Assembly: GCA_002787095.1 (NCBI GenBank)
Contig: PCVW01000010.1
Span: 7,774-71,773, forward strand
Length of the DNA: 64,000 nt
Direction: 5' to 3'
From: Candidatus Omnitrophica bacterium CG11_big_fil_rev_8_21_14_0_20_64_10
Lineage (GTDB): Bacteria > Omnitrophota > Gorgyraeia > 1-14-0-20-64-10
The position numbers and the translations under genes were made by a program. The notes beneath the pieces were generated by a model, which searched no databases, was not told the origin of the DNA, and saw nothing but the letters and a program-made list of their open reading frames with translations. This document shows positions 1 to 64,000 of the stretch, piece after piece; within the stretch, counting starts at the first letter, position 1; each line of letters begins with the position of its first letter.

Positions 1-642
1 GAAGGTCAGAGCAAGCGTTACCATGTTGGGCCGCCCCGCCCCGTCCCGCATTCCGGCCAGGAGCCGGACCGATTCCGGCTCCGGGACGGCTCCGGCTTTC
101 GGGCTCAGCAGATCCAGGCAGAGGGCCAGATCATGCGGGAGGCGGTCCCAAAGCAGATCGGTCTGGCGGCGGAACGGGCCCAGATCCCCCTCCTCGGTGA
201 CGATTGCCCGGATGCCCCCCCCCGCTTTCCGAACGGCCTCCTTGACGGCTTGATAGGCCGGATTGAACAGCTGGATGTGGTTGACCCACACCGGGAGACC
301 GCTTTTCCGGACCGCATCGTTCAGGCGACGGGTGGAGGGCAGATCGAGGGTCAGCGGTTTCTCGACCCAGCAGGGTTTTTTCGCCGCCAGGCAGGCCGAG
401 ACCATCTCGGCATGAAGGGGATCGGGCGCGGCGATCAGGACCGCTTCGCAGTCGGAGGCGATCAGTTTTTTCCAGTCGTCCGTGACGGCAATCCCCGGCG
501 CGGAGGATGCAAGCCGCTCGGGATTCCGGACGGAGATGTGGGTGATTCGGACGATTTCCGGAAGTGCGGCGGCGCTCCGAAGAAGCACCTGTCCCCATCG
601 GCCGGCGCCGATCAACCCCAGGCGCAACGGCTCCAGCGCCAC
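1..642 (-). CDS. Gfo/Idh/MocA-family NAD(P)-dependent oxidoreductase, partial (C-terminus lies beyond the window start)
   Basis: Reverse-strand translation gives VALEPLRLGLIGAGRWGQVLL...DCEAVLIAAPDPLHAEMVSACLAAKKPCWVEKPL, the classic N-terminal Rossmann fold and EKP motif of this family. The GTG start at 642-640 lies 4 nt from the stop of the upstream gene. The ORF is absent from the track because it runs off the window edge. Confidence 0.7.
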   Translation of the reverse strand, partial: MALEPLRLGLIGAGRWGQVLLRSAAALPEIVRITHISVRNPERLASSAPGIAVTDDWKKLIASDCEAVLIAAPDPLHAEMVSACLAAKKPCWVEKPLTLDLPSTRRLNDAVRKSGLPVWVNHIQLFNPAYQAVKEAVRKAGGGIRAIVTEEGDLGPFRRQTDLLWDRLPHDLALCLDLLSPKAGAVPEPESVRLLAGMRDGAGRPNMVTLALTF

Positions 643-646
643 CCGA

Positions 647-1708
647 TCACTCCCCCCGATAGTGGGTCAGCGCCCAGTCCATGAAGCGCCGCAGCCCGTC
701 TTTCAGGGAGACCTGGGGGGCATAGCCCAGCTGCAGGGTCGCCTTGCCGATGTCAGGACAGCGCCGCTGCGGTTCATCCGCCGGATAGGAATCGGGATAT
801 TCAACCTGATCGATCGGGATTGGCCGGCCGAGGGCCTCGGTGATTGTCTGGGCCAGGTCCAGCATCGAGACCTCCGGCTTCGGGTTGCCGATGTTGTAGG
901 CCTGTCCCGGTCCGCCTTGGACGAGGGTTTTTATGAATCCGGTGATCGCGTCGGTCACATAGCAGAAGGTGCGGGTCTGCCGGCCGGTGCCGTAGATCCG
1001 GAGTGGTTTCCCGGACTTGATCCGGCTGGCGAAGTTCGGGAGGACCCGGTAGTCGGTCTCTTTCATGCCGGGCCCGTAAATATTGAACGGCCGGACGATC
1101 TTGGTCGGGACGCCGTCCTGTTCGTGGAAGATCATGCAGAGGGTCTCCCCCAGCCGCTTCGACTCGTCGTAGCAGGCCCGGGGTCCGATCGAGGCGACAT
1201 TCCCCCGGTACGACTCCGGGGTCGGGACATGTTTCGGATCCGGATCGCCGTAGATCTCGCTGGAGCTGAAATAAAGGAACCCCTTGAGGGGATGGTTTCG
1301 GGAGAAGAGCAGCAGGTTCTTCGCTCCCAGAGTTGCCACCTCGAGGGTCTGCAGGGGGTATTTTCGGTAGTAGTAGGGGCTGGCGATGCCGGCGGCGTGG
1401 ATGCAGTAATCGACCGTCTCCGGGACCTGCAGCGGTTGGATCACGTCATGCTCGATGAAGCGGGTCCCCGGCAGATCGGTTTTAAAATCTTCCGGCCGGC
1501 GGCTGGTGATGTGGTTGTCCACGCCGATCAGCCGGATCGGCTGTTTCCGGTTCTCCCGGTTGAAGGCGGCGAACAGCGCGGTGAAATAGGTTCCGAGGAA
1601 TCCGTGGGCGCCGGTCATCAGCACGACATGGCCGGAAAGGGCCTTCAGTTCCGGCTCGGTCTGCCGCAGGATTTCCTGGATGTCGCTGTCGAGATAGGTG
1701 GCGGTCAT
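647..1708 (-). CDS. UDP-glucuronate decarboxylase (UDP-xylose synthase, UXS/ArnA-decarboxylase-like) SDR
   Basis: 353 aa. GxxGxxG (TGAHGFLG); blocks GPRACYDESKR, RPFNIYGPG, TRTFCYVTD and PQRRCPDIGKA closely match UXS-type NAD-dependent decarboxylases. TGA stop at 649-647 checked. Confidence 0.85.
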   Translation of the reverse strand: MTATYLDSDIQEILRQTEPELKALSGHVVLMTGAHGFLGTYFTALFAAFNRENRKQPIRLIGVDNHITSRRPEDFKTDLPGTRFIEHDVIQPLQVPETVDYCIHAAGIASPYYYRKYPLQTLEVATLGAKNLLLFSRNHPLKGFLYFSSSEIYGDPDPKHVPTPESYRGNVASIGPRACYDESKRLGETLCMIFHEQDGVPTKIVRPFNIYGPGMKETDYRVLPNFASRIKSGKPLRIYGTGRQTRTFCYVTDAITGFIKTLVQGGPGQAYNIGNPKPEVSMLDLAQTITEALGRPIPIDQVEYPDSYPADEPQRRCPDIGKATLQLGYAPQVSLKDGLRRFMDWALTHYRGE

Positions 1709-1718
1709 GGAGTTCCCG

Positions 1719-3005
1719 TCATCTTACCTCAAGTTCCGGCAGCGGCACGATGAAATGTCCCCCGGCCGCCCGGAAATCAACCTGTTTGGCGATGATCGGC
1801 TCAGCGAAGTTCCAGGCCAGGATCAAACAGTGGTCCGGCCGGCGGCGGGGATCCCGCAGCACCTCCGAGGAGACGATCGGGATGTGGTGTCCCGGGGAGA
1901 GGAGCCCCTGCTTCCAGGGACTGTCATCGATGATCTGGGGCAGGTCCGCCGGCCCGAGCTCGAACTGGTACATCAGGGTGGTCGCCTTGGCCGGGGCCCC
2001 GAAACCGATGACCCGGCGCCCCTCGTTTTTCAACCGGTCGAGGAGGGTTCGCAGTTCCTCTTTCCGCCGGTGGATCCGGTCTCCCAGCTTTTGGAAGCAG
2101 GCGGCTTTGAACAGGCCGGCCCGCTCCTCCTCCCGGATCAGCCGGTGGAGCCGTTCGGCCGGTTGGATGCCTGCCCTTTTCGGCCGGACCCATCCCCGGA
2201 GGGAGCCGCCGTGCGTCTCCACCTTCTCCGCGTCGGCGAGGACCCATCCCCGGCTTTCGAAAAAACCGGCCAACGGCCGGGCGGTGTGATAGCTGAGGTG
2301 CTCGTGGTAGATCGTGTCGAACAGCAGCTTCTCCACGACCGCCAGCCCGTGGGAAACTTCGAAGAGGAACCAGCCGGCCGGATCCAGCAGTTCCGCGATC
2401 CCCCGGGCGATCCCGTCCAGGTCGTCGGCATGGGCGAAGACATTGTTCGCGGTGATCACCTTCGGCTTCCACCCTTCCCGCTTGAGGGCCCGGGCCAGCT
2501 CCGGGGTGAAGAATTCCGTCCGGGTCGGGATCCCCGTCTTTGAAGCGCTTTCGGCGATTTTGCGGGCCGGATCCAGCCCCAGCACCCGCATCCCCGCTTC
2601 CTGAAAGAAGCGCAGGAGGGTCCCGTCGTTGCTGCCGATGTCGATCACCTGGTCCCCCGGTTTGAGTTCCGCCCGTTCGATCACCGCCCGCGCGTACCGC
2701 CGGAAATGATCCACGAAGGCCGGCGAGGTCCCCGACACATAGACATAGTCCCGGAAGAGAATTTCGGGGGAGACGATCTCCTCCAGCTGCAGGTGGGCGC
2801 AAGCACGGCAGAGCCGCAGGGTTAGGGGGAAGCGGGGCTGCGGCTCGGCGGCCTGCTCCGGCCGGACGAAGGCATTGGCCAGCGGCGTCTCACGCAACGA
2901 CAGGACCGGGTCGGTCCCGGCGCCGCAAAGCCGGCAATCCCGCCGCCGCTTCAGCCAGCCGGCCGCTTCGGCGGTCCGATCGGCCGGCGCCGAATTCGGC
3001 TTCAT
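1719..3005 (-). CDS. NDP-hexose C-methyltransferase (TylC3/NovU family), copy 1
   Basis: N-terminal zinc ribbon CRLCGAG...PLANAFV...CRAC followed by a class-I methyltransferase core (VIDIGSNDG), then the C-methyltransferase C-terminal domain (WNFAEPI). The real ATG at 3005-3003 forms an ATGA overlap with the upstream stop. The track ORF 1719..3467 carries a 154-aa spurious N-terminal extension. Confidence 0.8.
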   Translation of the reverse strand: MKPNSAPADRTAEAAGWLKRRRDCRLCGAGTDPVLSLRETPLANAFVRPEQAAEPQPRFPLTLRLCRACAHLQLEEIVSPEILFRDYVYVSGTSPAFVDHFRRYARAVIERAELKPGDQVIDIGSNDGTLLRFFQEAGMRVLGLDPARKIAESASKTGIPTRTEFFTPELARALKREGWKPKVITANNVFAHADDLDGIARGIAELLDPAGWFLFEVSHGLAVVEKLLFDTIYHEHLSYHTARPLAGFFESRGWVLADAEKVETHGGSLRGWVRPKRAGIQPAERLHRLIREEERAGLFKAACFQKLGDRIHRRKEELRTLLDRLKNEGRRVIGFGAPAKATTLMYQFELGPADLPQIIDDSPWKQGLLSPGHHIPIVSSEVLRDPRRRPDHCLILAWNFAEPIIAKQVDFRAAGGHFIVPLPELEVR

Positions 3006-3418
3006 TGCTCCGGCGAAACCTTCATCGGGGGGATCCGGACGATGTCCGCTTCGTAGTCCGGCGCGTGGCGGTCGTTGCGGGCCACGACGAACAGGACTGA
3101 ATCCTCGGTGAAGACCATCACATGTTCGAACATCGGCGGCGAGTAGAAGAGGGTTCCCGGGGTGATGATCCACTGCTGGGGCGCCTCGGTGGAGCCGACC
3201 GGCCGGTGGGCGTAGATCATCCGGCCGGAATGGAGCCAGGAGTAGTGGAAATCGGTCTTGTGGTAATGGTTCCCCCGCACCGCCCCCTTCTTGGAATGGA
3301 TCACGAGGGCCGAGCCCAGCGGCAGGTCCACGAGGTTCTGGATCATCCCCCGGTCGTCCCGGAAAGGGGCCGGCAGTTGGACCACGGTTTTCGGATCCAG
3401 TTTCTTTGAAGGGGTCAT
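3002..3418 (-). CDS. WxcM/FdtA-like cupin (putative NDP-4-keto-6-deoxyhexose 3,4-ketoisomerase)
   Basis: 138 aa, small cupin. RGNHYHK resembles the FdtA His-x-His block RGFHAHK; size and context (next to a C-methyltransferase) fit. Confidence 0.55.
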   Translation of the reverse strand: MTPSKKLDPKTVVQLPAPFRDDRGMIQNLVDLPLGSALVIHSKKGAVRGNHYHKTDFHYSWLHSGRMIYAHRPVGSTEAPQQWIITPGTLFYSPPMFEHVMVFTEDSVLFVVARNDRHAPDYEADIVRIPPMKVSPEQ

Positions 3419-3423
3419 TCCGT

Positions 3424-4287
3424 TTACTCCTTGTTTGTCTTTTGATGAACGATGAAATTGCCGCCATGTTTGAGGCGCCGGACCACCCGGACCCCGAACG
3501 GCCGGTTCCCGATCCCCGCCTTCTCCAACAGGCGGGAGAGCGGGTCCGGCTTCAGCTGGCCGAGGAACTCCAGCCCGTGCCGATGAAGCAGCTCATTCCA
3601 GACCGGCATGGCCTGGTAGATGAAGTTCTTCTCCAGATGGATGTGGTGCTGCTCCGAGGGGCTGAAGGTGGATTTGCTGATCAGCCATCCCCCCGGCTTG
3701 AGCGTCTTCGCGATCCGGCCGACCGCCTCATCCAGATCGAACAGATGCTCGAAGACATCCCAGGCGATCACCGCGTCGTACCGCTCCTGCGGCAGCGGCT
3801 CTAGGGCGGAGAGGACCTCCGCCTCGAAGCCTTCCCGCTTGAATCGCCAACCGGCGTAGTCCCGGGTGTTGCCCGGCACATCCAGGTGATCGCATCGGAT
3901 TCCCCGCCGCCGCAGGTGCAGAGTGACGCCGCCGACCCCGCCGCCAAAGTCCAGCACCCGCTCCTTGCCCCATCGCCGGCAGGCCAGCGCCAGCACCTCG
4001 AGCCATTTCTGCTTGTCCCGCGTCGCCTCCCAGTAGCTCAGTTCATACAGGTACTGCGGCGTCTGGGCGTAGTAGGCGTCCACCTCCGCGGCGGTTTGGG
4101 CCCGGGCGGCCCGCTTCTGCGCCTCCACATCCTCCGTTTCCTTCTTCTCCCAGTAGGTTTTGGCGATCGCCTCCAGCGGTTCCCGGAGGTACCCGGTCAG
4201 GTGGCCAAAGGCAGTTTCGGCCGCCCGGGGATCCAGCCCCGCGACGCAGAGCTCCTCCTCCAGGGCCGGATCACGATACGGCGTCAT
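3424..4287 (-). CDS. class I SAM-dependent methyltransferase (MT1)
   Basis: Motif I VLDFGGGVGG and post-I acidic residue; ATG at 4287-4285 checked (cat on the plus strand). Confidence 0.75.
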   Translation of the reverse strand: MTPYRDPALEEELCVAGLDPRAAETAFGHLTGYLREPLEAIAKTYWEKKETEDVEAQKRAARAQTAAEVDAYYAQTPQYLYELSYWEATRDKQKWLEVLALACRRWGKERVLDFGGGVGGVTLHLRRRGIRCDHLDVPGNTRDYAGWRFKREGFEAEVLSALEPLPQERYDAVIAWDVFEHLFDLDEAVGRIAKTLKPGGWLISKSTFSPSEQHHIHLEKNFIYQAMPVWNELLHRHGLEFLGQLKPDPLSRLLEKAGIGNRPFGVRVVRRLKHGGNFIVHQKTNKE

Positions 4288-5872
4288 GGTTTTCCGCGAT
4301 CTCCCAGTATTTGGCCCAGAGGGCATGGTGAAAGAAGGCGGTCAGCCCGGCGAAGAGGAACCCGATCCGCCCTTCCCGGAAGCCCCCCTGCTTGATGAAC
4401 GATTTCCAGAAACGGTGGATCGGTTTGAAGACCATCTGTCCCCGCACGACCTGCCAAGGGAGCCGGCCCTTCTCCCGGAAGAGGACCGCCGCCTCGACGT
4501 TCGAGTAATGGTTCTGCCGGTCGATGAACTGCGCGAACGATTGGAACGGATGGTGCTCGATCTCCGCTTCCAGCGGGGCGACCTCCCCGTCCACCTGCAG
4601 GCGGACATGGATCCCCTGCCCCACGCAGCGGGCGTTCTTCCTGCGGAACAGGATCCGGTGCCGGTGCCGCCAGCCCCCCCGCCGCATCGGATGGCCCAGG
4701 AAGAAGTTGAGTCGGATCAGGTCGTAGGCCCGGACCCGGCCGTCGTTGGTCCGCAGCGCTTCATCGATCGCGTCCCGCAGCGCCGGGGTCACGATCTCGT
4801 CGGCGTCGATGTGCAGGATCCACTCGCTCTCGGCCCGGTCGCTGCCGATGTTCCATTGCTGATCGTGGTTGTCCCGGGAGGGATGGACGAACACCTTGGG
4901 GGTGAAACGCTTCGCGATCGCGACGCTGTCGTCGCTGCTTTCATCGTCCACGATCACGATCTCGTCGGCCCATCCCTGGACCTGCTCCAGGCAGTGGGCC
5001 AGCCGGGCCGCTTCGTTCTTCACCATCATCACCACCGCCAATGTCGGGCGCCGCCGGCCCGGGGGCTCCGCCGCCGGCCGGCTCACCGCATCTCCCGCCG
5101 GAACGGTCTCCGTCCGCTGCGTTGCTTCCCAGTATTTGGCGTAGCTGACGAACTGGTAGAGGCCGCCGAGGACCGCGGCGACGAAGCCGATCCAGCCGTC
5201 CTTCCGTCCCTTCTTGCCGACATAAGCCCGAAAGAAGCGGTCGATCGTCCGCTGCATCCCCTTGCCGAACGACATCTTCCGGCCGTCGGTCAGCCACTTC
5301 CGGGTCTCCAGGGTCGTTTGCCGGTTGAGCTTGCCGATGAAATCCCCGATGTCCCGATAGGAGTAGTGGAGGATGTCGCCGGTCAGCGCCCCCGAGGGCT
5401 GGTCGGAGATCGCCCGGCAGTGGACCGTCGTCTCCTCCCAGCGGAAGGCGGACCGCTTGTACAGCTTGACCTGGGCGCTTGGGTACCAGCCGCCGTGCTT
5501 GAGCCAGCGCCGCCCGATGTAGTTCCGGCGGGGAATCGCGTAGACGGCCTTCTCCGGTGTCCCCCGGAAGAGGGTCTGCAGTTCCTCCGCCAGCTCCGGG
5601 GTCACCCGCTCGTCGGCGTCGATGCTCAGGATCCAGTCGTTCCGGGCCTGGGCCGCCGCCCAGTTCCGATGCCGCCCTTCCAGGTCCATCTTCCGGTGGA
5701 CGACCCGGACCCGGGGGCTCTGATTCCTGGCGATCGCGACGGTGTCGTCGCTGCTTTCATCGTCTACGACCAGGATCTCGTCGGCGAACGGCACCGAGTC
5801 CAGGCAGTCCCGGATCCGGCCGGCCTCGTTCTTCGTCAGGACGACGACGGTGAGCGGGAGAGATTCCGGCAT
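4271..5872 (-). CDS. tandem (two-domain) family-2 glycosyltransferase
   Basis: Two consecutive GT-A/GT2 modules: LTVVVLTKNEAGRI...ILVVDDESSDDT and LAVVMMVKNEAARL...IVIVDDESSDDS. ATG at 5872-5870. The first 111 aa of track ORF 4271..6205 are rejected as an extension. Confidence 0.8.
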   Translation of the reverse strand: MPESLPLTVVVLTKNEAGRIRDCLDSVPFADEILVVDDESSDDTVAIARNQSPRVRVVHRKMDLEGRHRNWAAAQARNDWILSIDADERVTPELAEELQTLFRGTPEKAVYAIPRRNYIGRRWLKHGGWYPSAQVKLYKRSAFRWEETTVHCRAISDQPSGALTGDILHYSYRDIGDFIGKLNRQTTLETRKWLTDGRKMSFGKGMQRTIDRFFRAYVGKKGRKDGWIGFVAAVLGGLYQFVSYAKYWEATQRTETVPAGDAVSRPAAEPPGRRRPTLAVVMMVKNEAARLAHCLEQVQGWADEIVIVDDESSDDSVAIAKRFTPKVFVHPSRDNHDQQWNIGSDRAESEWILHIDADEIVTPALRDAIDEALRTNDGRVRAYDLIRLNFFLGHPMRRGGWRHRHRILFRRKNARCVGQGIHVRLQVDGEVAPLEAEIEHHPFQSFAQFIDRQNHYSNVEAAVLFREKGRLPWQVVRGQMVFKPIHRFWKSFIKQGGFREGRIGFLFAGLTAFFHHALWAKYWEIAENHDAVS

Positions 5873-6936
5873 TGGTTGAGCAGTTCCTCGTGTGTCGGTT
5901 GATCCATCAGACGGGCCCGGTGCAGCCACCGGAGCCGGCGCACCCACCGGGACCAGGCGGGGTCGTGGCTGACCACCAGGTCGAACGGTTTCTTCCGCTT
6001 GGTGACCAGGCGCCAGAGCGCGGTCCGGCGCCAGCTTTTCTCCGGCCCTTCGAGAAAGGCCACCTGCGCCTGTCCTTCCGGGAAGGGGTTGCCGTTCCCT
6101 CGCGGTCCGGCGACGCAAAGCCAGTGCCCCGCCTCCACGATCCGGCGCCAGCCGTCGGGATCGCTCTCGGGGGAATCGGTCAGGATCCGGAGCTTCCGTC
6201 CCCATTTCGCTTCGTACCGCCGGCGGTTTTCCTCAAAGGCTTTCTTCCAGCCCGGCATCCGCCGGAAGCTGGCCTTCTCTTCATGGTACACATAGGCGCC
6301 GCAGGCCCGGACGATCGTTCGCCCGCTGTTTCGGACCCGGTGGGAGAGGTCGTCGTCGTCGAAGTTCCCCATCCCGAACCGTTCATCCAGCCCGCCGATC
6401 TCCTCAAAGAGGGAGCGCCGGCCAAGCAGACAGAAGCCCAGCGCGATCGAGAGGGAGGCCGACTTTCCTGACTCGGCCTGGAGGGATCGGGCGACCGCTT
6501 CGGGGCTGCGCCCCGCCGGACTCAGCCCCAGGGAATTGCTGGTGGGATTGACCAGGCCGATCTGTGGGTCCTGATCGGCGACTCGGATCATCTCGGTCAG
6601 CCAGCCGGCGGTGACGACGGTATCGTTGTTCAGCAGGCAGATCCAGGGAGCTTGGGCCGCCGCCAGTCCCTGGTTGATCGCCTTGATGAAGCCGAGGTTG
6701 ACGGTGTTGCGCAGGATGGCCACCGGCACCGGGGCCGCCTGAGCGAATTGATCGAGCATCTCCCGGGTCGGCGCTTCCGAGCCGTTGTCGATCAGGATCA
6801 GCCGGATCGACCGGCCGGTATTTTGAATGACCGATTCCAGGCAGCGGCCGGTCAACTCCGGCAGGTTCCAGATCGGGATGATGATGTCGCAGTCGGGCCG
6901 ATTCCCCCGGCCCGCTGTTCCCTCCGGGCTACTCAA
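5836..6936 (-). CDS. family-2 glycosyltransferase
   Basis: CDIIIPIWN...LILIDNGSEAP...LLNNDTVV, a GT2 fold with DxD. The only available start is TTG at 6936-6934 (the track's 'M'). Confidence 0.75.
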   Translation of the reverse strand: MSSPEGTAGRGNRPDCDIIIPIWNLPELTGRCLESVIQNTGRSIRLILIDNGSEAPTREMLDQFAQAAPVPVAILRNTVNLGFIKAINQGLAAAQAPWICLLNNDTVVTAGWLTEMIRVADQDPQIGLVNPTSNSLGLSPAGRSPEAVARSLQAESGKSASLSIALGFCLLGRRSLFEEIGGLDERFGMGNFDDDDLSHRVRNSGRTIVRACGAYVYHEEKASFRRMPGWKKAFEENRRRYEAKWGRKLRILTDSPESDPDGWRRIVEAGHWLCVAGPRGNGNPFPEGQAQVAFLEGPEKSWRRTALWRLVTKRKKPFDLVVSHDPAWSRWVRRLRWLHRARLMDQPTHEELLNQCRNLSRSPSSS

Positions 6937-7768: not shown

Positions 7769-7870
7769 GGGCCCCCCATTCTACCAGAACCGCCGCCGGA
7801 AAAGGGGGCTGGCCCAAAAGGGGGTCAAAGGGGGCAGGCCTTCAGTACCCCGCACCGGCCAACATTTCGG
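7769..7870 (-). promoter_or_regulatory. only substantial intergenic gap of the locus (102 bp); candidate internal promoter / RBS region
   Basis: The minus strand reads ...cctTTGACCcc...(39 nt)...ggTAGAATGGGGGGcccATG. A -10-like TAGAAT and a G-rich Shine-Dalgarno sit just upstream of the ATG; the -35 spacing is non-canonical. No convincing terminator hairpin. Confidence 0.2.
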
Positions 7871-15665: not shown

Positions 15666-15678
15666 GAGGGGGATTATA

Positions 15679-28840: not shown

Positions 28841-28844
28841 GGGC

Positions 28845-30173: not shown

Positions 30174-30183
30174 GGCCGTCGGG

Positions 30184-50438: not shown

Positions 50439-50446
50439 GGATCGGC

Positions 50447-51930: not shown

Positions 51931-51933
51931 CGT

Positions 51934-52767: not shown

Positions 52768-52768
52768 C

Positions 52769-57480: not shown

Positions 57481-58286
57481 CTGCCAGCTCCTTTGTCGGT
57501 TGATTTTGTTCCGACCGCGAAAAAATTCAGGCGGAACGGAAAACTCAAGAACAGGCGCCGCACCTCAAACGGGCCCTGCAGCAGCCGCCGCAGGGTGCCG
57601 GCGCTGAACAACTGGATGTGTCCCATCGCCAGGTCGTCGCTGAGCGGACCCAGGAAACCGCGCAGCCCCAGCCGCTTCAGCATCGTCTTGATCGCCACAA
57701 TCCATCGGTCGTTGGGAACGGAGACGACCAGCCGGCCGCCCGGCGCCAGCACCCGGGCCAGCTCTCCGACCGCTTCTTCCGGCCGCTCCAAATGCTCCAG
57801 CACCTCGGTGCAGAAGATCAGGTCGAGCGAGCCGTCCCGGAACGGCAGCCGGGTCACATTGGCGGCCATCGCCGGAATCGCGGCCGCCGAACCGTTTTTC
57901 CGGCGATTCTCCCGAAGCATCCCCGAATCCAAATCGGCCAGCAGCGACAGACCGGATCCGCCGAGCCGCCGGGCGGTCACCTGCCCTGACTCGCACCCGA
58001 TGTCCAGAATCCTTCGGGCGGGACAATCCCCCAGCCGTTCGGTGATCCGGAACCGCTGCCGTTCGACCCATCGGATCAGCGGATTGGGATGGGCCGATTT
58101 CTGCGCCATCGGATGCGCCCGATTGACCGCCTGATTCCATTCGGCGACGGAAACCGGCTGGTCGTTCTTGAAAAGGAGAAAGCGGCCCCGCGCGTCATCC
58201 CAACGCTTGAGGAAACGGTCCGAACCGACGCGGTAAAGGTGTTCCCCTTCGTTCCAGCTCACGATTGGGACTCCCGTTGGGCCCAT
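57477..58286 (-). CDS. class I SAM-dependent methyltransferase (MT8)
   Basis: ILDIGCESGQV motif I; ATG at 58286-58284. Confidence 0.75.
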   Translation of the reverse strand: MGPTGVPIVSWNEGEHLYRVGSDRFLKRWDDARGRFLLFKNDQPVSVAEWNQAVNRAHPMAQKSAHPNPLIRWVERQRFRITERLGDCPARRILDIGCESGQVTARRLGGSGLSLLADLDSGMLRENRRKNGSAAAIPAMAANVTRLPFRDGSLDLIFCTEVLEHLERPEEAVGELARVLAPGGRLVVSVPNDRWIVAIKTMLKRLGLRGFLGPLSDDLAMGHIQLFSAGTLRRLLQGPFEVRRLFLSFPFRLNFFAVGTKSTDKGAGR

Positions 58287-59230
58287 TTTCGCTGCAGACG
58301 AATGTTCTGCCGTCTGAGCTCCAGCAATTGGGCTGCCAGGAAGGCAAACAACAGGATCTGCAGGCCGAAAAGGAGGCAGAGCAGCGTGACGGTCAGGAGC
58401 GGCCGGCCGGCCACCGGCGTTCCGCCGATCGAGAGCCAGGCGGCATACCCGCCGCAGAGGGTTCCCAGTCCCATCAGGCCCAGGCCGGCAGTCCCGAACA
58501 GCAGGAAGGGGCCTTCCTGAAAACCGAACAGGAGATGGGTCCAGGCGAAACGAAGCAATTTCGCAGAAGGGAATCCCCGCCGTTTCCGTTCCGGCTCCCA
58601 GCGCAGCACCGCCGGGACATCCACTGATCGAAAACCGAGCGCGTAGGCCTTCGAGAGGATCTCCAGATGGATCTCCTTGTCATCCGATTCCAGATCGAGC
58701 GCCCGCAGCACCTCGGCCCGGTAGCAGCGGGTCATCCCCGATGCCATCGTGGTCCGGCGGCCGAGGGCCAGGCAAAGCAGCCGGTTGCCGTACCGGCTGA
58801 GGAAGACCCGCAGCCCCGGAACATTCTCCAGCCGGCCGCCCGGCATGTGCGGGGAGGCGATCGCAAAATCGACCCCGGCGGTTTCCAGGGCGGCCGGGAG
58901 GCGCTCCAGGACGGCCTCCCCCCAGGTCAGATCGGATTCGGTCGAAAGAATCCATTCCCCGCGGGCTTTAGCGAATCCCCGCCGCAGGGCATACCCGCGT
59001 CCCCGGTTCGGGGAATAATCGATCAGATGAATCGCCGGATCGCCGCCGATCGCCTGCCGGGCCGCCTCCCCGGTCCCGTCGGTGGAGCCGTCGTTGACCA
59101 GGATCAGCTCCCAGGAGCGGCCGAGCCGCTGGAGGACGGCACGCAGACGGCCGATGCTCTCGGCGATCTTCGCCGATTCGTTGTACATCGGGCACACCAC
59201 CGACAGTTCAGGTCGCGGAGAGGGAGACAT
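58259..59230 (-). CDS. polyprenol-phosphate glycosyltransferase (GT2, ArnC/DPM1-like) with C-terminal TM helices
   Basis: LSVVCPMYNESAKI...LILVNDGSTDGT...STESDL; two C-terminal TM helices as in ArnC/GtrB. ATG at 59230-59228. Confidence 0.8.
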   Translation of the reverse strand: MSPSPRPELSVVCPMYNESAKIAESIGRLRAVLQRLGRSWELILVNDGSTDGTGEAARQAIGGDPAIHLIDYSPNRGRGYALRRGFAKARGEWILSTESDLTWGEAVLERLPAALETAGVDFAIASPHMPGGRLENVPGLRVFLSRYGNRLLCLALGRRTTMASGMTRCYRAEVLRALDLESDDKEIHLEILSKAYALGFRSVDVPAVLRWEPERKRRGFPSAKLLRFAWTHLLFGFQEGPFLLFGTAGLGLMGLGTLCGGYAAWLSIGGTPVAGRPLLTVTLLCLLFGLQILLFAFLAAQLLELRRQNIRLQRKWAQRESQS

Positions 59231-60308
59231 GTTGTTTCTTCATCAGGATTTTGGCGATCCGTTCGGCCGCCTTCCCGTCCCAAAGCGGAGGGATCTGTCC
59301 CTTCGGCGGCGTTTTCAGCGCCTGGTCGGCCGCCGCGGCGATCCGGTCCGGGTCGGTGCCGACGATCCGGTTGGTTCCCAGGCGGGTGGTGATCGGCCGC
59401 TCGGTGTTTTCCCGCAGCGTCAAACAAGGGATCCGCAAGGCGGTGGTCTCCTCCTGGACCCCGCCGGAATCGGTCAGGAGCAGGGCGGCATGCCGCATCA
59501 GCTTCAGGAAATCAAGATAACCGAGCGGCTCCAGCAGGGTGATCCGATCCTGCTCGGAGGGAAAGCCGGCCGTCCGGAGACGGGCCTGCGTTCTGGGATG
59601 GACCGGGAAGAACAGCGGGAGACGCTTTGCCGCCCGCCGCAGCCCCTCCAACAGCCGGCCGAGGACCTCGGGGCGGTCCACATTCTCCGGCCGATGCAGG
59701 GTGATCAAGCCGTATCCTCCGGCGGGAGCAGTGGTGCGCTCCAGAATGTCGGATCGTTCCGCCAAAGCCAACGAAGCCTGCAGCGTGTCGATCATGACAT
59801 TGCCGACCCGATGGATGCCGGCGGCCGCGACCCCTTCCCGGGCCAAATTCTCATCGGCCTCCTCGCAATGCGTGAAGAGCAGATCGGAGAGGTGGTCGGT
59901 CAGCAGACGGTTCAATTCCTCCGGCATCCCCCGATCCCCGCTGCGCAGGCCGGCCTCCACATGGGCGACCGGAATCCTCAATTTCGCCGCCGCCAGGGCC
60001 GCCGCCAGGGTCGAGTTGACATCTCCGAAGACGATCACCCGATCCGGCCGATCCTGAAGCAGAAAACGCTCGACGCCGACCAGCACGCCGGCGGTCTGCT
60101 CCGCGTGGCTTCCGGAACCGATCCCCAGATTGAAGTCCGGTTTCGGGAGGGCCAGGTCCCGAAAGAAGAGGTCGGACATCGCCGGATCGTAATGCTGGCC
60201 GGCGTGAAGCAGCTTGGCCTGAACCTCCGGCCAACCGCTCAGGGCCCGGATCACGGGGGCCGCCTTCATGTAGTTCGGCCGGGTGCCGACCACGCAGAGG
60301 AGCTTCAC
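59208..60308 (-). CDS. wecB: UDP-N-acetylglucosamine 2-epimerase (non-hydrolysing)
   Basis: KLLCVVGTRPNYMKAAPV...HVEAGLRS...TDSGGVQEE, WecB/MnaA hallmarks. GTG start at 60308-60306 in a GTGA overlap. Confidence 0.85.
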   Translation of the reverse strand: MKLLCVVGTRPNYMKAAPVIRALSGWPEVQAKLLHAGQHYDPAMSDLFFRDLALPKPDFNLGIGSGSHAEQTAGVLVGVERFLLQDRPDRVIVFGDVNSTLAAALAAAKLRIPVAHVEAGLRSGDRGMPEELNRLLTDHLSDLLFTHCEEADENLAREGVAAAGIHRVGNVMIDTLQASLALAERSDILERTTAPAGGYGLITLHRPENVDRPEVLGRLLEGLRRAAKRLPLFFPVHPRTQARLRTAGFPSEQDRITLLEPLGYLDFLKLMRHAALLLTDSGGVQEETTALRIPCLTLRENTERPITTRLGTNRIVGTDPDRIAAAADQALKTPPKGQIPPLWDGKAAERIAKILMKKQHVSLSAT

Positions 60309-61993
60309 GGCCCCGGCTCCAAGGCGTACAGCTCGATGACCGGACCGGGCCGTTTCAGGCGCCACAGATCAATCAAGGGGGTGTGGGAGGAGGGCAGCTG
60401 GCGCCGGTCGGTCTGCCCATCGTAGGGGGTGAACCGGACGACCGGCCGGCCGCCGGCCCGGAGGCGGGCATAGAAAGCGTCCTGCTTCGGCGAATCGGCC
60501 GTTTCAACGAAAGATTCCACAAAATCGGACAAGATCACCCAGGTCACTCCTTGCCGCTGCAGGCGGTCCAGATCGTAGCCATTCTCCATCTCGGGGATCA
60601 GATGCTCCCTCGGGATCAGTTCGATCAACCGGTACCGGGGCCGGGCCGCCGCCTGATTAGCCCGCGCCGACCACCAGAGACCGCTTCCCTTTCCGGAGTT
60701 CCGAGTCGCCGCGGCCAATTGCGCCGACTGTTCGGCGGTCTCCAACAACTGGGGCACCCAGGCCTGAAAGGTCCGACCGTGATCCACCGCCAGCATCGTG
60801 CCGGAGGGAACATGCGCCTCCACCCATTCCCGGGCCAGCCTCCGGGTATCCGGCCGGGTCAGCAGCCAATCGTGCCGGACCGCGGCGGCTCCGTTCGACA
60901 GGAACAACCCCGCCAGAAGCAGCGCCCGCAGCCGGACCGGCCGGCCCTCCATCCAACGGACCGCATAATAAAGCACAAACGGCGCCAGCGGAAGGATGTA
61001 GGCGGCCCGAACCGACCGGGTATAGCTGCCGATCAACAGGCCGTAAGCCAGCATTCCGGCGGTCAGCCAGAGATCCGGCTTGGACGGCTTCCGGAGCGAC
61101 CCTACCCAACCGATCCCTCCGGCCAGCAATCCGATCCAGCTGACCCCAACCGGAAGGTAGACAATAAGATACCGCCACCACCCCCCGGCCGTCCAGGGGG
61201 TATCCGGTTCCCGAAGGACGCCGCCGGCCCCTTCGGCCAGCCGGCCCAGCGTGCCGGCAGTCTCCCCGGCATGGAGGAGGATCGCCGGGTTGACCAGGGC
61301 GAAACAGGCCAGCGCGATCCCCACCGCTTCCAGCGCCGGTCGAAGCTTCGGCGTTCCCTTGGGCTTCAGCCCATGGGCCAGCAGCAGCCCCGGCAGCCAA
61401 AGGGCGAAGTTCCAGTTCATCCCCATCGCCAGACCGGTCCACAGCCCGGCTCCCCAACTGTCCCGCCGCCCGCCTCGAAGCATGGCCCGGAGGGCGAACC
61501 ATGCGGCTCCCACTCCAAAAAAGAGGGCCGGAATGTCCTGCCGGCAATAGTGGGAATCCCGAACATGGAGGAAACAGACCGCCAGGGCCGCCGCGCTCCA
61601 AAGGGCCGTCTTCTCCCCGGCGCCGGTCTCCCGGACGGTCCGGTAAAGGAGCCAGGGAGTGGCCGCGCCGAACCCGGCCGCCATCAGGCGGCCGCCGAGG
61701 ACCCAGGGGGCCGGATTCTGCAGAAATTGCTGCAGGTAAGCGGCGCTGGAGGACCAGAGACCCAACCCCTTCCCCACCAAAAAAGCCGCGGCATATCCGA
61801 CGAAAAGGAGTTCGTGAAAGAGATGCGGGTGGTGGGGGTAATCGACCGCTCCGATCCCCTGCCCGAAGCTGAGAGCGGTCTTGACGGTCATCAACTCATC
61901 CTGGTGGAAAAGATCGGGAAGGCCGAAGGCGATTCCCCAAAGCCGAAGCCCCAAGGCGGCTCCGAAGATGATCCACAGCCAATGCCCCGTCAT
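60305..61993 (-). CDS. GT-C family membrane glycosyltransferase (ArnT/PMT-like, GT39/83)
   Basis: About 12 TM segments, a first-loop HQDELMTVKTALSF (Asp/Glu motif) and a C-terminal periplasmic domain. ATG at 61993-61991. Confidence 0.7.
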   Translation of the reverse strand: MTGHWLWIIFGAALGLRLWGIAFGLPDLFHQDELMTVKTALSFGQGIGAVDYPHHPHLFHELLFVGYAAAFLVGKGLGLWSSSAAYLQQFLQNPAPWVLGGRLMAAGFGAATPWLLYRTVRETGAGEKTALWSAAALAVCFLHVRDSHYCRQDIPALFFGVGAAWFALRAMLRGGRRDSWGAGLWTGLAMGMNWNFALWLPGLLLAHGLKPKGTPKLRPALEAVGIALACFALVNPAILLHAGETAGTLGRLAEGAGGVLREPDTPWTAGGWWRYLIVYLPVGVSWIGLLAGGIGWVGSLRKPSKPDLWLTAGMLAYGLLIGSYTRSVRAAYILPLAPFVLYYAVRWMEGRPVRLRALLLAGLFLSNGAAAVRHDWLLTRPDTRRLAREWVEAHVPSGTMLAVDHGRTFQAWVPQLLETAEQSAQLAAATRNSGKGSGLWWSARANQAAARPRYRLIELIPREHLIPEMENGYDLDRLQRQGVTWVILSDFVESFVETADSPKQDAFYARLRAGGRPVVRFTPYDGQTDRRQLPSSHTPLIDLWRLKRPGPVIELYALEPGP

Positions 61994-61994
61994 C

Positions 61995-63284
61995 TCACCA
62001 GCCCCGCCAGCGGGCGATCATCCCCGCTCCAACCGCCTGCAGCAGCCCCCATCCGATGCCGAGCCCCGCCTTCCATCGGACCGGCCGGCGCTCTCCCCAA
62101 AAAGCGATCCATCCCAATGCCCCCAGCAGCAGCAGAAACGGCTCGAACGGAAGCCGGAAGCGAGGGGAACCATAGAAAAGAAGGGTTTGGAGCAGCAGAA
62201 CCCCCAGGGGGATTCCGATCAACACGACAGCGTGGCCGGTCCGGCGGATTTGCCACGCCCCCCAAAGGATCCAGGGGAACAGCAAGCCGTAGAGCCAATT
62301 GTACCGGGCGGTTCCATCCCGGGCGATGATCTCCCAATCCCAGGGAACCAACAGCGTGCCGAGCCGCAACCCCAGGATCGCCGGCAAACGCCCGGGCGCC
62401 CGCCGGAGCCGGTCCCAAGCGGCCCGGCGGTAGGCCCGGTCCCGATCCACCTCGTCCGGGAGCCGATCGATTCGACGGGCCGCCGCATCATCGGCCGAGA
62501 AGCCGTACCGAACGCCGTCCAGCGGGATCACCGCCGAATAGAGGGCCCTCCCCCCGTCGGTGGAAATCGGCACCCAGCGACCCAATTGTCGATGGTTCCG
62601 GATCGTCCAGAGGCCGATCAAGCTGCAGGCGATGACGCCGGCACAGAGGACCTGCCGCAGCAGCCGGCCGGATTCGGGGCCGGGCCGGCGCAGGCGGTGC
62701 CACGCCGCGGCGGCGGCAGCCGCCGGAACCAGCAACCCCATCCCCGGTCGGGTCAGGACCAGAGCGGCGCAGAGGATTCCCCAGACTATTGCCCGGAGGA
62801 GATGCCTTCGGTCCGCCCAGACTCCTCCCAGCCATCCCATCAGCATCAAGAGGAAGAGGGCCAGATTTTCGGTCAGCAGGGTCCCGCTGAGTCGAACCAG
62901 CGGCGGAGAAACGGCGATCAACAGCCCCGTGAGCCAGCCGGCCGGACAGCCGCCGATCCGCCGGCCGAGGGCGGCCCCGGCCAGGACGACGATCCCCCCC
63001 AGCAGGGCCTGGATCCAGACCACCGCCCGGTGATTTTGGCCGAACAAGCGATAGATCCCGGAGAGGAAGAACGGGTAGCCCGGCGCCTTGAAGGCGGTCG
63101 GTCGGCCGTCGGCATCCAGATAACCCCGCCCGGCCGACAGATCAACCGCCCGCTGGTGGTAGCCCGCCGCGTCCCCGGCCAAGGTCGCCGGCTCGGGGTT
63201 GCAGACGATTCGAAGCCCGACGGCGAGGAGAAACAGGCCGGCCAGCGCCCACCCGGAACGGTTCAAAACGGGAGGAACCTCCAC
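61995..63284 (-). CDS. GT-C family membrane glycosyltransferase (ArnT/PMT-like), second copy
   Basis: AGDAAGYHQRAVDL...GRPTAFKAPGYPFFL, a typical PMT_2/ArnT N-terminal loop. Candidate starts are GTG 63284, ATG 63323, or TTG 63266 (TTGA overlap with the upstream stop); TGA stop at 61997-61995. Confidence 0.65.
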   Translation of the reverse strand: MEVPPVLNRSGWALAGLFLLAVGLRIVCNPEPATLAGDAAGYHQRAVDLSAGRGYLDADGRPTAFKAPGYPFFLSGIYRLFGQNHRAVVWIQALLGGIVVLAGAALGRRIGGCPAGWLTGLLIAVSPPLVRLSGTLLTENLALFLLMLMGWLGGVWADRRHLLRAIVWGILCAALVLTRPGMGLLVPAAAAAAAWHRLRRPGPESGRLLRQVLCAGVIACSLIGLWTIRNHRQLGRWVPISTDGGRALYSAVIPLDGVRYGFSADDAAARRIDRLPDEVDRDRAYRRAAWDRLRRAPGRLPAILGLRLGTLLVPWDWEIIARDGTARYNWLYGLLFPWILWGAWQIRRTGHAVVLIGIPLGVLLLQTLLFYGSPRFRLPFEPFLLLLGALGWIAFWGERRPVRWKAGLGIGWGLLQAVGAGMIARWRGW

Positions 63285-63970
63285 TTGATGATCGCCCAGA
63301 TCACCGCGAAGCCGTGATGCCATCGGATCTTCTTGCCGGCTTTGTAGGAGCGGGGGTTGTATTGAACCGGCACCTCGACGATCTGCGCCCCCCGGCGCAG
63401 GAGCTTGCAGATAATCTCGTTGTCGATGTCGAACCGGTTGGATTGAAGATTCAGTCCCAGGAGCATCGAGCGCTTGCACACCTTGTAGCAGGCCTCGTAG
63501 TCGGTCGCGTAGAAACCGTACAGGCCGTTGGTCAACCCGATCACGAGCAGGTTTCCAAGATAATGGGTCAGGAAGGGGTCGCCATCCTTGGTGAAGAAAC
63601 GGGGTTTTTCCTTGAGGAACCTCGACCCCATCGCGACATCGGCATGCCCGCGGACCACCGGGCCGACCAGCGCCGCGTAGTCGTTCGGATCGTACTCCAA
63701 GTCGGCGTCCTGCACCAGGAACAGCTCCCCGGTCGCCTCCCCCAGGCCGGTCCGGACCGCGGCCCCTTTGCCGCGGTTGCGGGGATGGTCGATGACCCGG
63801 ACCCGGTCGGCCCAACGCTTCAGGCGCTGCCGGGTGTCGTCCGTTGAAGCATCGTTGACCACCAGCACCTCTTTTTCGAGCCCCGGCAACGGGGCGGCCA
63901 GCACCCGCTCCAAGAGGGTGTCCACATTGCCCGCCTCGTTGTAAATGGGAATCACGACGCTCAGCTTCAT
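63263..63970 (-). CDS. polyprenol-phosphate glycosyltransferase (GT2, DPM1/GtrB-like, soluble form)
   Basis: MKLSVVIPIYNEAGNV...VLVVNDASTDDT...LVQDADLEYDP. ATG at 63970-63968. It is the first gene of the window's transcription direction. Confidence 0.8.
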   Translation of the reverse strand: MKLSVVIPIYNEAGNVDTLLERVLAAPLPGLEKEVLVVNDASTDDTRQRLKRWADRVRVIDHPRNRGKGAAVRTGLGEATGELFLVQDADLEYDPNDYAALVGPVVRGHADVAMGSRFLKEKPRFFTKDGDPFLTHYLGNLLVIGLTNGLYGFYATDYEACYKVCKRSMLLGLNLQSNRFDIDNEIICKLLRRGAQIVEVPVQYNPRSYKAGKKIRWHHGFAVIWAIIKWRFLPF

Positions 63971-64000
63971 CTTGAAACAGCCGCTCCGGCCGGCGTTTCC

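Follow-up and report, generated by a model that had tools for sequence, protein, structure and literature searches.

A one-strand, lipopolysaccharide/O-antigen-like gene block in an Omnitrophota genome is probably a composite rather than a single super-operon

The stretch of DNA analyzed here, 64,000 nucleotides (nt) of contig PCVW01000010.1 from the uncultivated groundwater bacterium Candidatus Omnitrophica bacterium CG11_big_fil_rev_8_21_14_0_20_64_10 (hereafter the window), carries a long block of tightly packed genes, most of which belong to glycan-related families. A preliminary description had taken this block to be a single, translationally coupled super-operon. Our analysis bears this out only in part: the same packing continues into neighboring housekeeping genes, and −10-like boxes inside the block precede the start codons at 15665, 13008 and 7768. 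We consider it likely that the window holds a composite, one-strand block of lipopolysaccharide (LPS)/O-antigen type that is served by several promoters and whose dense packing is a genome-wide habit of its clade.

All 57 genes lie on the minus strand and together give the window a coding fraction of 99.7% (Table 1). Because the G+C content is high (65%), the raw list of open reading frames (ORFs), which holds 200 entries of at least 100 amino acids (aa), is full of spurious frames on both strands. ORFs were scored by codon usage, which replaced a threshold on third-position G+C (GC3) that under-called genes when used alone. A codon-usage model trained on the window returned 56 genes on the minus strand and no credible gene on the plus strand; the 57th, a 284-aa ORF at 38996–39850, was added from the stored calls of the source contig and of an identical contig in another assembly. 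The earlier count of about 57 genes, all on the minus strand, is therefore upheld by codon usage and stored calls for 57 of 57. With the stored start codons, which like all starts given here are predictions, 42 of the 56 junctions (75%) are overlaps, 13 are gaps of 0–19 nt and one is a gap of 102 nt at 7769–7870, confirmed as the sole spacer longer than 20 nt. Twenty-five overlaps measure 4 nt, four measure 1 nt and the remainder span 7–61 nt; the motifs are ATGA (18), GTGA (7) and TGATG (4), and the stop codons are TGA (51), TAG (3) and TAA (2). The overlaps are thus mostly of the 4-nt ATGA/GTGA kind, as first described, although the largest reaches 61 rather than 40 nt and the small gaps extend to 19 rather than 13 nt. 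This largest called overlap, between g01 and g02, would shrink to 4 nt if g02 began at an alternative TTG at 63266.

The window is contained in European Nucleotide Archive contig ERZ27293412 k141_715396 (75,728 bp; record coordinate = window coordinate + 7744), which is one-stranded over its whole length (about 70 of 70 genes). The best matches of its PriA are named Candidatus Omnitrophota metagenome-assembled genomes (MAGs), at 55–61% identity, and g03 has the same sequence as NCBI COV76_01715 from Candidatus Omnitrophica bacterium CG11_big_fil_rev, a name pattern that we take to denote the Crystal Geyser aquifer MAG series. Upstream, beyond window position 64,000, the contig encodes a methyltransferase, an LPG_synthase_TM protein and a third AsnB paralogue. 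Beyond window position 1 come the rest of a GFO oxidoreductase, a GmhB-like HAD phosphatase and an MGDG-synthase-like glycosyltransferase, followed by uracil-DNA glycosylase (UDG), priA, def, fmt and galT. As had been proposed, the locus leaves the window at both ends: the glycan genes stop ~2.5 kb past position 1, and in the other direction they run past the end of the contig. The glycan block therefore measures at least 72 kb and comprises at least 66 glycan genes. No tRNA genes or Rfam matches were found in the window.

To place this arrangement in context, we compared it with 21 priA-centered loci of other bacteria, each at least 15 kb long, taken from a metagenome scan with a PriA alignment (universal motifs, many phyla). 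The strand switches at 93 of 324 control junctions (29%), and one of the 21 loci is fully co-directional, compared with 0 switches at 56 junctions in the window; by our own arithmetic, ~70 genes would run on one strand at the control switch rate with a probability of ~1e-10. Overlaps of 4 nt make up 9.5% of same-strand control junctions and 45% of window junctions. These features do not end with the glycan genes. A 4-nt overlap joins the MGDG-synthase-like gene to UDG in this contig (L011 12595–16875) and in two relatives (L022 8173–11998 and L023 8215–12004), and in L022 and L023 the same holds for UDG and priA. The GCA_023818695.1 record is wholly one-stranded over 37.6 kb (321100–358732) through galT, gap-pgk-tpi-secG and an ABC transporter, and ERZ978390 k127_611191 is one-stranded over 44 kb, save one terminal gene, in a region that includes pyruvate kinase, cytochromes and rubrerythrin. 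Because both the strand and the 4-nt overlaps run on into unrelated genes, we attribute the packing to genome architecture rather than to one transcription unit. Single-strandedness and tight packing look like a property of the clade's chromosome and not like evidence of one functional unit.

Comparison with related Omnitrophota loci, onto which the window proteins were mapped by tblastn together with the stored gene calls of those loci, divides the block into two parts of different history. A backbone, corresponding to window ~1–19,330 and the 2.5 kb past the left edge, is kept in the four relatives examined. It runs in the order GT1 glycosyltransferase, DUF218 protein, GT4, dehydratase, WecA-like protein, Wzy_C protein, two GT9s, several GT2s, a C-methyl-sugar module, HAD phosphatase and MGDG-synthase-like protein, and abuts UDG-priA-def-fmt. 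Within it, GT4, dehydratase (74% identity, the best-conserved gene of the block), WecA-like fusion (60%), Wzy_C, GT9 and GT9 form one run common to L024, L025 and L108, and HAD, MGDG_synth, UDG, priA, def and fmt form another common to L022 and L023; variable glycosyltransferase and sugar genes lie between the two. By contrast, the corresponding positions in those relatives lack counterparts of g01–g39, and this extension (window 19,311–64,000 plus 4 kb to the contig end) appears to be lineage-specific. The two parts also differ in rarity: at E ≤ 1e-10, the WecA-like fusion g46 has 820 homologues, whereas g03 has 23, the best non-identical ones at 47% and 45% identity. One g03 homologue lies in L027, in a one-strand cluster of different composition. 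Synteny is thus retained over the downstream third of the window and lacking over the upstream two-thirds, and the expectation of a product with few described relatives suits the rare upstream part but not the conserved backbone.

Internal promoters are suggested by −10-like boxes close to start codons (Table 1). TATAAT occurs twice on the coding strand of the 64 kb, both times 7–13 nt before a start codon, and the same interval holds three of six TAnAAT and two of seven TGnTAnnnT occurrences; within 4–15 nt of a start, TAnnnT was observed five times against 0.88 expected (P = 0.002). The boxes ahead of 15665, 13008 and 7768 fall at barely or non-overlapping junctions (gaps of 13, 1 and 102 nt, respectively), and the TG that extends the first of them sits at −15/−14. 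Comparable boxes are found in the relatives: L024 and L025 have TGnTAAGAT in a true intergenic spacer before the dehydratase gene and TAACAT 10–15 nt ahead of the first gene that follows the GT9 pair, and L025 has TATAAC 8 nt before the WecA-like ATG. Outside the glycan genes, def is preceded by TATACT at 7 nt in this genome (L011 ~16881–16886) and by TAAAAT at 6 nt in L022. The −10-type boxes noted in L022 lie at 11996 and 17222.

A −10 box only 6–13 nt from the start codon would give a leaderless or near-leaderless mRNA, and the pattern suggests that such mRNAs are common in this Omnitrophota clade. On this view, at least three internal promoters would give rise to mRNAs of this kind, beginning at 15665, 13008 and 7768. 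Terminator-like hairpins are about as numerous as expected from shuffled sequence, with none at a gene end, and the 102-nt gap, as RNA, folds no more stably than shuffled sequence (z = +0.63). Because no terminator is evident, the internal transcripts would probably be nested in read-through from upstream, adding to it rather than insulating units. At the level of translation, stop and start codons overlap by 4 or 1 nt at 29 junctions, and a Shine-Dalgarno core (GGAG/GAGG/AGGA) lies 4–18 nt before 26 of the 57 starts, against a background of 13% (P = 2e-9). Termination–reinitiation coupling within gene runs is plausible on these grounds; the same overlaps and Shine-Dalgarno features also link unrelated genes.

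The encoded functions, assigned by Pfam and NCBIfam profile scans with family-specific cut-offs, point to glycan synthesis. Glycan families account for about 50 of the 57 proteins. Seventeen are glycosyltransferases (seven GT2, four GT1/GT4, two GT9, three GT-C enzymes of the PMT/PMT_2 families and one WecA/MraY-like enzyme) and 12 are nucleotide-sugar enzymes; three are assembly proteins (a Wzx-like flippase, a weak Wzy-like protein and a Wzy_C ligase), accompanied by one DUF218/ElyC-like protein. The tailoring set is as unusually large as had been claimed, with ten methyltransferases (eight class-I S-adenosylmethionine (SAM)-dependent enzymes and two nucleoside diphosphate (NDP)-hexose C-methyltransferases), two radical-SAM enzymes (one B12-binding, one with a SPASM domain) and six others (two hexapeptide acetyltransferases, one deacetylase, one GDSL protein and two AsnB-type amidotransferases). 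Assignment reaches the level of curated equivalogs for glucose-1-phosphate cytidylyltransferase, WecB and the AsnB paralogues, and stops at the family for the GT9s, the Wzy_C protein, the dehydratases and the aminotransferase. The profiles contain no pointer to secondary-metabolite export. A reading of the radical-SAM and AsnB genes as a pathway for a ribosomally synthesized and post-translationally modified peptide or another secondary metabolite, prompted by ApyD and lasso-cyclase-like matches, was rejected because the scores are far below cut-offs, no space is left for a precursor gene and the surrounding genes are all glycan-related.

Gene order suggests particular sugar pathways and one enzyme partnership. 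RfbF, a methyltransferase, a 4,6-dehydratase-like short-chain dehydrogenase/reductase (SDR), a cupin, a C-methyltransferase and an RmlD-like reductase follow one another in g10–g15, an order that suggests a pathway to a cytidine diphosphate (CDP)-linked 6-deoxy-C-methyl-hexose. A second module of cupin-like protein and C-methyltransferase (g54 and g55) lies in the backbone. At the upstream end, a GT2 (g01, PF00535) adjoins a GT-C (g02, PF13231), forming a putative synthase/transferase pair; the two correspond to a single 689-aa GT2::PMT_2 fusion in L027 (3730–5799), which provides Rosetta-stone support for their acting together. No GtrA or ArnE/F-type small flippase was recognized by Pfam among the 57 proteins.

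Taken together, these assignments make a polyprenol-linked envelope glycan the most likely product of the block. In the scheme we propose, the WecA-like enzyme and ~13 cytoplasmic glycosyltransferases would build oligosaccharide units on polyprenyl phosphate, drawing on the encoded pathways for CDP-6-deoxy-C-methyl-hexose, uridine diphosphate (UDP)-ManNAc and amino or acetamido sugars. The units would be O- and C-methylated, acetylated, deacetylated and amidated, then flipped by the Wzx-like protein and possibly polymerized by the Wzy-like protein, after which the Wzy_C ligase would move them to a GT9-built core or another acceptor. Pairs of GT2 and GT-C (PMT_2) enzymes would attach more sugars at the outer face, with polyprenyl-phosphate sugars as donors. 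Whether the product is specifically an LPS core with O-antigen is, in our judgment, evenly balanced.

Several observations weigh against the composite, LPS/O-antigen-like reading. On the functional side, the earlier assignment to LPS core and O-antigen is matched at family level, GT9, Wzy_C and WecA-like proteins being recognized by Pfam, but the GT9s and the Wzy_C protein fall under the NCBIfam equivalog cut-offs and Wzx and Wzy under those of Pfam (Wzx only just), which leaves the assignment weak in places. Six proteins (g07, g20, g23, g25, g34 and g36) have no assigned function, and Wzz, lipid-A/Kdo and export genes were not recognized on the 75.7-kb contig. On the transcriptional side, a sigma-70 scan for −35 and −10 hexamers yielded nothing over shuffle expectation, against a consensus that may differ in Omnitrophota. 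The −10 boxes number only three or four, the one at 1721–1726 may be conserved for coding reasons, and no −10-like box is found at any junction of the upstream 48 kb (64,000–15,679). Finally, the claim of a genome-wide strand bias covers one syntenic neighborhood in four relatives, and a short contig of another Omnitrophota MAG (L015) has mixed orientation.

Some of the same points favor a product other than LPS core and O-antigen from the same gene architecture, which we regard as possible but on balance unlikely. In that case g47 would be an O-oligosaccharyltransferase and the product a protein or S-layer glycan, a capsule or an exopolysaccharide (EPS), and the GT-C enzymes would, with the same low probability, glycosylate proteins or another polymer. 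The Wzy_C domain of g47 is common to ligases and O-oligosaccharyltransferases, and its top NCBIfam matches, all below cut-off, are IctB, the exosortase-associated (PEP) O-glycosylation ligase and TfpM, an O-linking oligosaccharyltransferase, rather than WaaL equivalogs. The AsnB paralogues resemble the XrtA/PEP-CTERM EPS amidotransferase, the PMT family of GT-C enzymes includes protein O-mannosyltransferases according to its Pfam description, and the sub-threshold GT9 scores against heptosyltransferase profiles and the lack of lipid-A or Kdo genes on the contig fit as well. However, the GT9 pair stands beside the Wzy_C and WecA-like genes with a GmhB-like HAD phosphatase downstream, an arrangement classic for LPS-core and ligase genes in waa and rfb clusters, and genes for exosortase, PEP-CTERM, Wza/Wzc or ABC export are absent.

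The single super-operon, in which a promoter upstream of the contig would drive the whole block as one coupled unit making one heavily modified glycan, is improbable in our estimate. It draws on the unbroken strand, the 99.7% coding fraction, the overlaps at 42 of 56 junctions, the lack of an excess of terminator-like hairpins or of a stable fold in the 102-nt gap, the box-free junctions of the upstream region, and the presence in the window of a single initiating transferase, a single clear ligase and a single Wzx-like gene. Against it stand the boxes 7–13 nt before three starts at non- or barely overlapping junctions, with boxes at the same junctions in relatives, and the different evolutionary histories of backbone and variable part. 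The packing itself is identical into UDG, priA, def and fmt and so carries no operon meaning. An operon is expected to be co-directional and contiguous, to lack internal promoters and to be bounded by differently arranged unrelated genes. This block is co-directional and contiguous, but candidate internal promoters are present in its sequence, and UDG, priA, def, fmt and galT share its arrangement. Two cupin and C-methyltransferase modules, three GT-C enzymes and two Wzy_C-type proteins also suggest more than one product or acceptor.

A related but narrower proposal, which we offer tentatively and rate as rather unlikely, concerns the region from the contig start to window 15,679 (at least 52 kb and at least 46 genes). 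It could form one mRNA translated by serial termination–reinitiation, on a chromosome organized in this clade as very long arrays of co-directional genes linked by overlaps, with leaderless promoters at the few breaks. Gaps in this region do not exceed 19 nt, and its junctions have no recognizable −10 box or terminator. If the proposal were true, this region, which includes g01–g42, would rank among the longest bacterial operons known, and the strand bias of the clade would be comparable to or beyond that of Firmicutes.

An artefact of chimeric assembly or of gene calling in high-G+C DNA is effectively refuted, despite the long spurious ORFs on both strands and two short contigs (L017 and L010) that part from the window at one end: codon-usage scoring leaves the plus strand without genes, the Pfam scan, which covered the minus-strand proteins, found domains in them, gene order is kept in relatives, and contigs assembled from different sequencing runs (Logan SRR6240784, JGI 3300004208-10 and other ENA records) are collinear with the window at 99.96–100% identity. 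Both short contigs come from sister assemblies. L017 matches the window only to ~18057 and L010 only to ~62963, after which they diverge abruptly, one running into a Malic_M fragment and the other into an opposite-strand ORF. Either strains are rearranged at the DUF218 and PMT_2 genes, or the ends of these contigs are chimeric.

Table 1. Predicted genes and candidate −10 boxes of the window (coordinates in the window; bits, profile score)
Feature	Coordinates	Strand	Assignment	Support
g01	63263..63970	minus	GT2, polyprenyl-phosphate-sugar synthase-like (AglJ/PpgS/ArnC), 235 aa	PF00535 114.7 bits
g02	61995..63323	minus	GT-C glycosyltransferase (PMT_2), 442 aa	PF13231 43.4 bits; at least 5 hydrophobic segments
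g03	60305..61993	minus	GT-C glycosyltransferase (PMT/PMT_2), 562 aa	Pfam
g04	59208..60308	minus	WecB, non-hydrolysing UDP-GlcNAc 2-epimerase	TIGR00236 358 bits, cut-off 210
g05	58259..59188	minus	GT2, 309 aa; GTG start 59200 also possible	PF00535
g06	57477..58262	minus	Class-I SAM methyltransferase	PF08241 69 bits
g07	56158..57480	minus	Unassigned protein, 440 aa, one hydrophobic segment	Weak DUF4330 match only
g08	54747..56177	minus	GT-C glycosyltransferase (PMT_2), 476 aa, ~8 transmembrane segments	Pfam
g09	53542..54750	minus	GT4-family glycosyltransferase	Pfam
g10	52769..53545	minus	Glucose-1-phosphate cytidylyltransferase (RfbF)	TIGR02623 345.8 bits, cut-off 300.25
g11	51934..52767	minus	Class-I SAM methyltransferase	Pfam
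g12	50893..51930	minus	CDP-glucose 4,6-dehydratase-like SDR	Top NCBIfam TIGR02622 222 bits, under cut-off 278
g13	50447..50896	minus	Cupin, NDP-sugar epimerase/isomerase-like	PF00908 30.4 bits
g14	49200..50438	minus	NDP-hexose C-methyltransferase	PF08421 76 bits, PF08484 145 bits
g15	48304..49200	minus	RmlD-like 4-ketoreductase	TIGR01214 218 bits, cut-off 224
g16	47280..48314	minus	GFO/IDH/MocA oxidoreductase, UDP-GlcNAc 3-dehydrogenase-like	NCBIfam below cut-off
g17	46714..47283	minus	Hexapeptide-repeat sugar acetyltransferase	Pfam/NCBIfam
g18	45623..46717	minus	GT2	Pfam
g19	44667..45626	minus	SDR epimerase/dehydratase	Pfam/NCBIfam
g20	42937..44670	minus	Polytopic membrane protein with DUF6798, 577 aa	Pfam, hydrophobicity
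g21	41048..42937	minus	AsnB-type glutamine amidotransferase	TIGR01536 433 bits, cut-off 267
g22	39834..41051	minus	GDSL/SGNH hydrolase-like, 405 aa	Weak Pfam matches
g23	38996..39850	minus	Beta-propeller-repeat protein, 284 aa, start uncertain	Homologues
g24	37435..39003	minus	B12-binding radical-SAM enzyme, probable methylase	Pfam/NCBIfam
g25	35738..37435	minus	Unassigned soluble protein, 565 aa	No Pfam match in scans
g26	34578..35741	minus	DegT-family sugar aminotransferase	PF01041 388 bits
g27	34003..34581	minus	Hexapeptide-repeat acetyltransferase	Pfam/NCBIfam
g28	33107..34006	minus	Class-I SAM methyltransferase	Pfam, stored annotation
g29	31275..33107	minus	AsnB-type amidotransferase	Pfam/NCBIfam
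g30	30184..31278	minus	Radical-SAM/SPASM enzyme	Pfam/NCBIfam
g31	28845..30173	minus	GT4	Pfam
g32	27404..28840	minus	Wzx-like flippase (weak), 478 aa	PF01943 27.6 bits, cut-off 28.2; at least 5 hydrophobic segments
g33	26268..27407	minus	Methyltransferase	Pfam, stored call
g34	24532..26271	minus	Unassigned soluble protein, 579 aa	
g35	23787..24542	minus	Methyltransferase	Pfam
g36	22273..23790	minus	Unassigned membrane protein, 505 aa	
g37	21527..22276	minus	GT2	Pfam, stored call
g38	20616..21530	minus	Methyltransferase	Pfam
g39	19311..20615	minus	Wzy-like polymerase candidate (weak)	PF04932 26 bits, cut-off 31.7
g40	18116..19330	minus	GT1/GT4 glycosyltransferase; conserved backbone begins	Pfam
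g41	16887..18122	minus	DUF218 protein, ElyC-like	Pfam/NCBIfam
g42	15679..16890	minus	GT4	Pfam; conserved in relatives
−10 box	15673..15678	minus	TATAAT with upstream TG (extended −10)	7 nt before ATG 15665, in 13-nt spacer right after g42 stop
g43	14682..15665	minus	SDR 4,6-dehydratase/decarboxylase-like	Pfam/NCBIfam
g44	13855..14685	minus	Methyltransferase	Pfam
g45	13010..13858	minus	Polysaccharide deacetylase	Pfam
−10 box	13022..13027	minus	TATAAT	13 nt before ATG 13008, within 3′ end of g45
g46	11206..13008	minus	Initiating phosphoglycosyl transferase, 600 aa	PF00953 108.5 bits
g47	9932..11209	minus	Wzy_C-family ligase (WaaL-like or O-oligosaccharyltransferase-like)	PF04932 82.6 bits
g48	8959..9957	minus	GT9 (heptosyltransferase family)	PF01075 92 bits; TIGR02195 97 bits, cut-off 134.6
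g49	7871..8971	minus	GT9	PF01075 94 bits; heptosyltransferase II equivalog 106 bits, cut-off 134.6
−10 box	7778..7783	minus	TAGAAT after TGG (extended −10)	9 nt before ATG 7768, in 102-nt gap
g50	6929..7768	minus	GT2-like, 279 aa	57–59% identity in L023, L024, L025
g51	5836..6936	minus	GT2	Pfam; mapped in relatives
g52	4271..5872	minus	Double-GT2 protein, internal duplication	Pfam, repeat analysis
g53	3424..4287	minus	Methyltransferase	Pfam; 65% identity in L022
g54	3002..3418	minus	Small conserved protein, 138 aa, weakly cupin/FdtA-like	72% identity in L022
g55	1719..3005	minus	Second NDP-hexose C-methyltransferase	Pfam; 63% identity in L022
−10 box	1721..1726	minus	TAAGAT, ambiguous	12 nt before ATG 1708; overlaps last codons and stop of g55
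g56	647..1708	minus	SDR epimerase/dehydratase	Pfam/NCBIfam; mapped in relatives
g57	1..642	minus	GFO/IDH/MocA oxidoreductase, cut by window edge (328 aa in contig)	Pfam

Among the backbone proteins, g46 has an unusual architecture: a WecA/MraY-like GT4 domain followed by a WbaP-type N-terminal module (transmembrane segments and CoA_binding_3), without the WbaP catalytic domain. It scores 86 bits against TIGR02380 (wecA), below the cut-off of 326, so that its class membership holds at family level. The 120 homologues listed share the two-domain architecture at 48–60% identity, and among these every match with a named source is from Omnitrophota. Together, g40 and g41 correspond to a GT1::DUF218 fusion of ~630 aa in two relatives (L024 721–2616 and L025 758–2644), with g40 being 41–45% identical to its N-terminal half. 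Another fusion, of PMT_2 and methyltransferase domains (678 aa), is found at 4923–6959 of L108. For g54, a weak Polysacc_synt_C match is probably spurious because the protein has no hydrophobic segment, is weakly cupin/FdtA-like and is well conserved in L022; rather than a flippase remnant, the protein is more probably a small sugar isomerase of cupin type that partners the adjacent C-methyltransferase.

The tandem and dispersed DNA repeats of the window are confined to paralogous genes, namely the GT9 pair, the double GT2, three methyltransferases, the two C-methyltransferases and the AsnB, SDR and PMT_2 families. The class-I methyltransferase genes g38, g35 and g33 share an identical or near-identical 27-mer (20959–20985, 24097–24123 and 26566–26592, respectively). 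Along with the paired GT9s, the double-GT2 protein and the two cupin/C-methyltransferase modules, this shared 27-mer indicates that the cluster grew partly by internal duplication.

Several upstream genes merit separate comment. The scores of g01 against the NCBIfam AglJ, PpgS and ArnC profiles are far below cut-offs, g32 has no match in the NCBIfam scan, and the stored gene call starts g14 at ATG 50369. Around g23, codons are atypical, the G+C content dips (~39300–39640) and gene callers differ on the start (284 versus 163 aa). A second, unreported gap of ~830 nt at 39004–39833 was considered and rejected on the basis of the stored gene call and of beta-propeller homologues (249 at E ≤ 1e-3, the best non-self at 5e-24, some alignments reaching residues 26–47), and the stretch is probably coding. 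The gene may have been acquired recently, or it may be a fragment, now decaying, of what was once a longer repeat protein. For g24, the sole relative in a GTDB scan is from an Omnitrophota MAG, 57% identical and on a short contig. PDB sequence searches with g07, g25, g34 and g36 returned no match, and permissive Pfam scans of the four yielded only the weak DUF4330 match of g07. The record of g25 carries a precomputed Ulvan_lyase_N hint, from which the protein may be a glycan lyase or depolymerase inside the biosynthetic cluster.

The closest parallel to the block in scale is the rfb locus of Leptospira, whose genes are reportedly transcribed in one direction. Both are very large and combine nucleotide-sugar pathways, many glycosyltransferases and tailoring genes; Wzx and Wzy of the Leptospira locus have weakly scoring candidates here, and its variation between lineages has an apparent counterpart in the upstream extension. 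A passage of PMC13111663, citing PMC10958091, puts the Leptospira LPS locus at more than 100 kb in some strains. The present block belongs to another phylum and shows no close homology. It is far more tightly packed (75% overlaps, 99.7% coding), is co-oriented into housekeeping genes, and adds three PMT-type GT-C enzymes, radical-SAM enzymes and two C-methyltransferases. Its logic resembles that of the enterobacterial waa and rfb loci, together with WecA and WaaL, in that it has an initiating transferase, GT9s, a Wzy_C-family protein, NDP-sugar genes and candidates for the flippase and the polymerase. In Escherichia coli, waa and rfb are separate loci of 10–15 kb, with several operons and JUMPStart/RfaH control, whereas here the corresponding genes are contiguous, the WecA-like domain is fused to the WbaP-type module, Wzz was not found, and GT9, Wzx and Wzy lie below equivalog or Pfam cut-offs.

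Individual modules also have known counterparts. A small GT2 beside a GT-C, as in g01/g02 with their fused form in a relative, resembles the ArnC/ArnT and GtrB/GtrC modules and is assigned its function by this resemblance; in contrast to those modules, GtrA and an ArnE/F flippase are unrecognized here, and ArnC, PpgS and AglJ profiles are not reached. The row of RfbF, SDR, cupin, Methyltransf_13/14 C-methyltransferase and RmlD-like genes recalls TylC3-type pathways for NDP-hexose 3-C-methylation, from which it differs in being CDP- rather than deoxythymidine diphosphate-linked and in having two paralogous cupin and C-methyltransferase modules. Virenose, in the LPS of Coxiella, is a branched 6-deoxy sugar of the C-methyltransferase type. 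Within the phylum, variable surface-polysaccharide cassettes have been described in complete Omnitrophota genomes (bioRxiv 10.64898/2026.06.07.730766). Those loci, too, are population-variable surface-glycan loci, but that work, on a different Fennoscandian/Baltic lineage, does not include a one-strand block of more than 70 kb, the priA-side backbone or the packing. Our literature search found no description of this locus, of a priA-side conserved backbone or of strand bias in Omnitrophota.

The sequence was already public as an unannotated MAG, and the locus is a familiar kind of cluster, not a new kind of system. What sets it apart is its size, its extreme packing and its tailoring load, with the super-operon look largely reflecting genome architecture. 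Genome scans should take this into account, since runs of genes on one strand and 4-nt overlaps connect unrelated functions in this clade and are unusable for drawing operon boundaries. Should the leaderless −10 boxes be genuine, they would offer a first handle on the promoter architecture of an uncultivated phylum. These Omnitrophota are ultra-small and possibly host-dependent bacteria in which surface glycans probably shape partner attachment and phage evasion, and the locus provides a first map of their envelope-glycan machinery, with a backbone by priA-def-fmt that is kept in the examined relatives and a large, apparently lineage-specific tailoring region.

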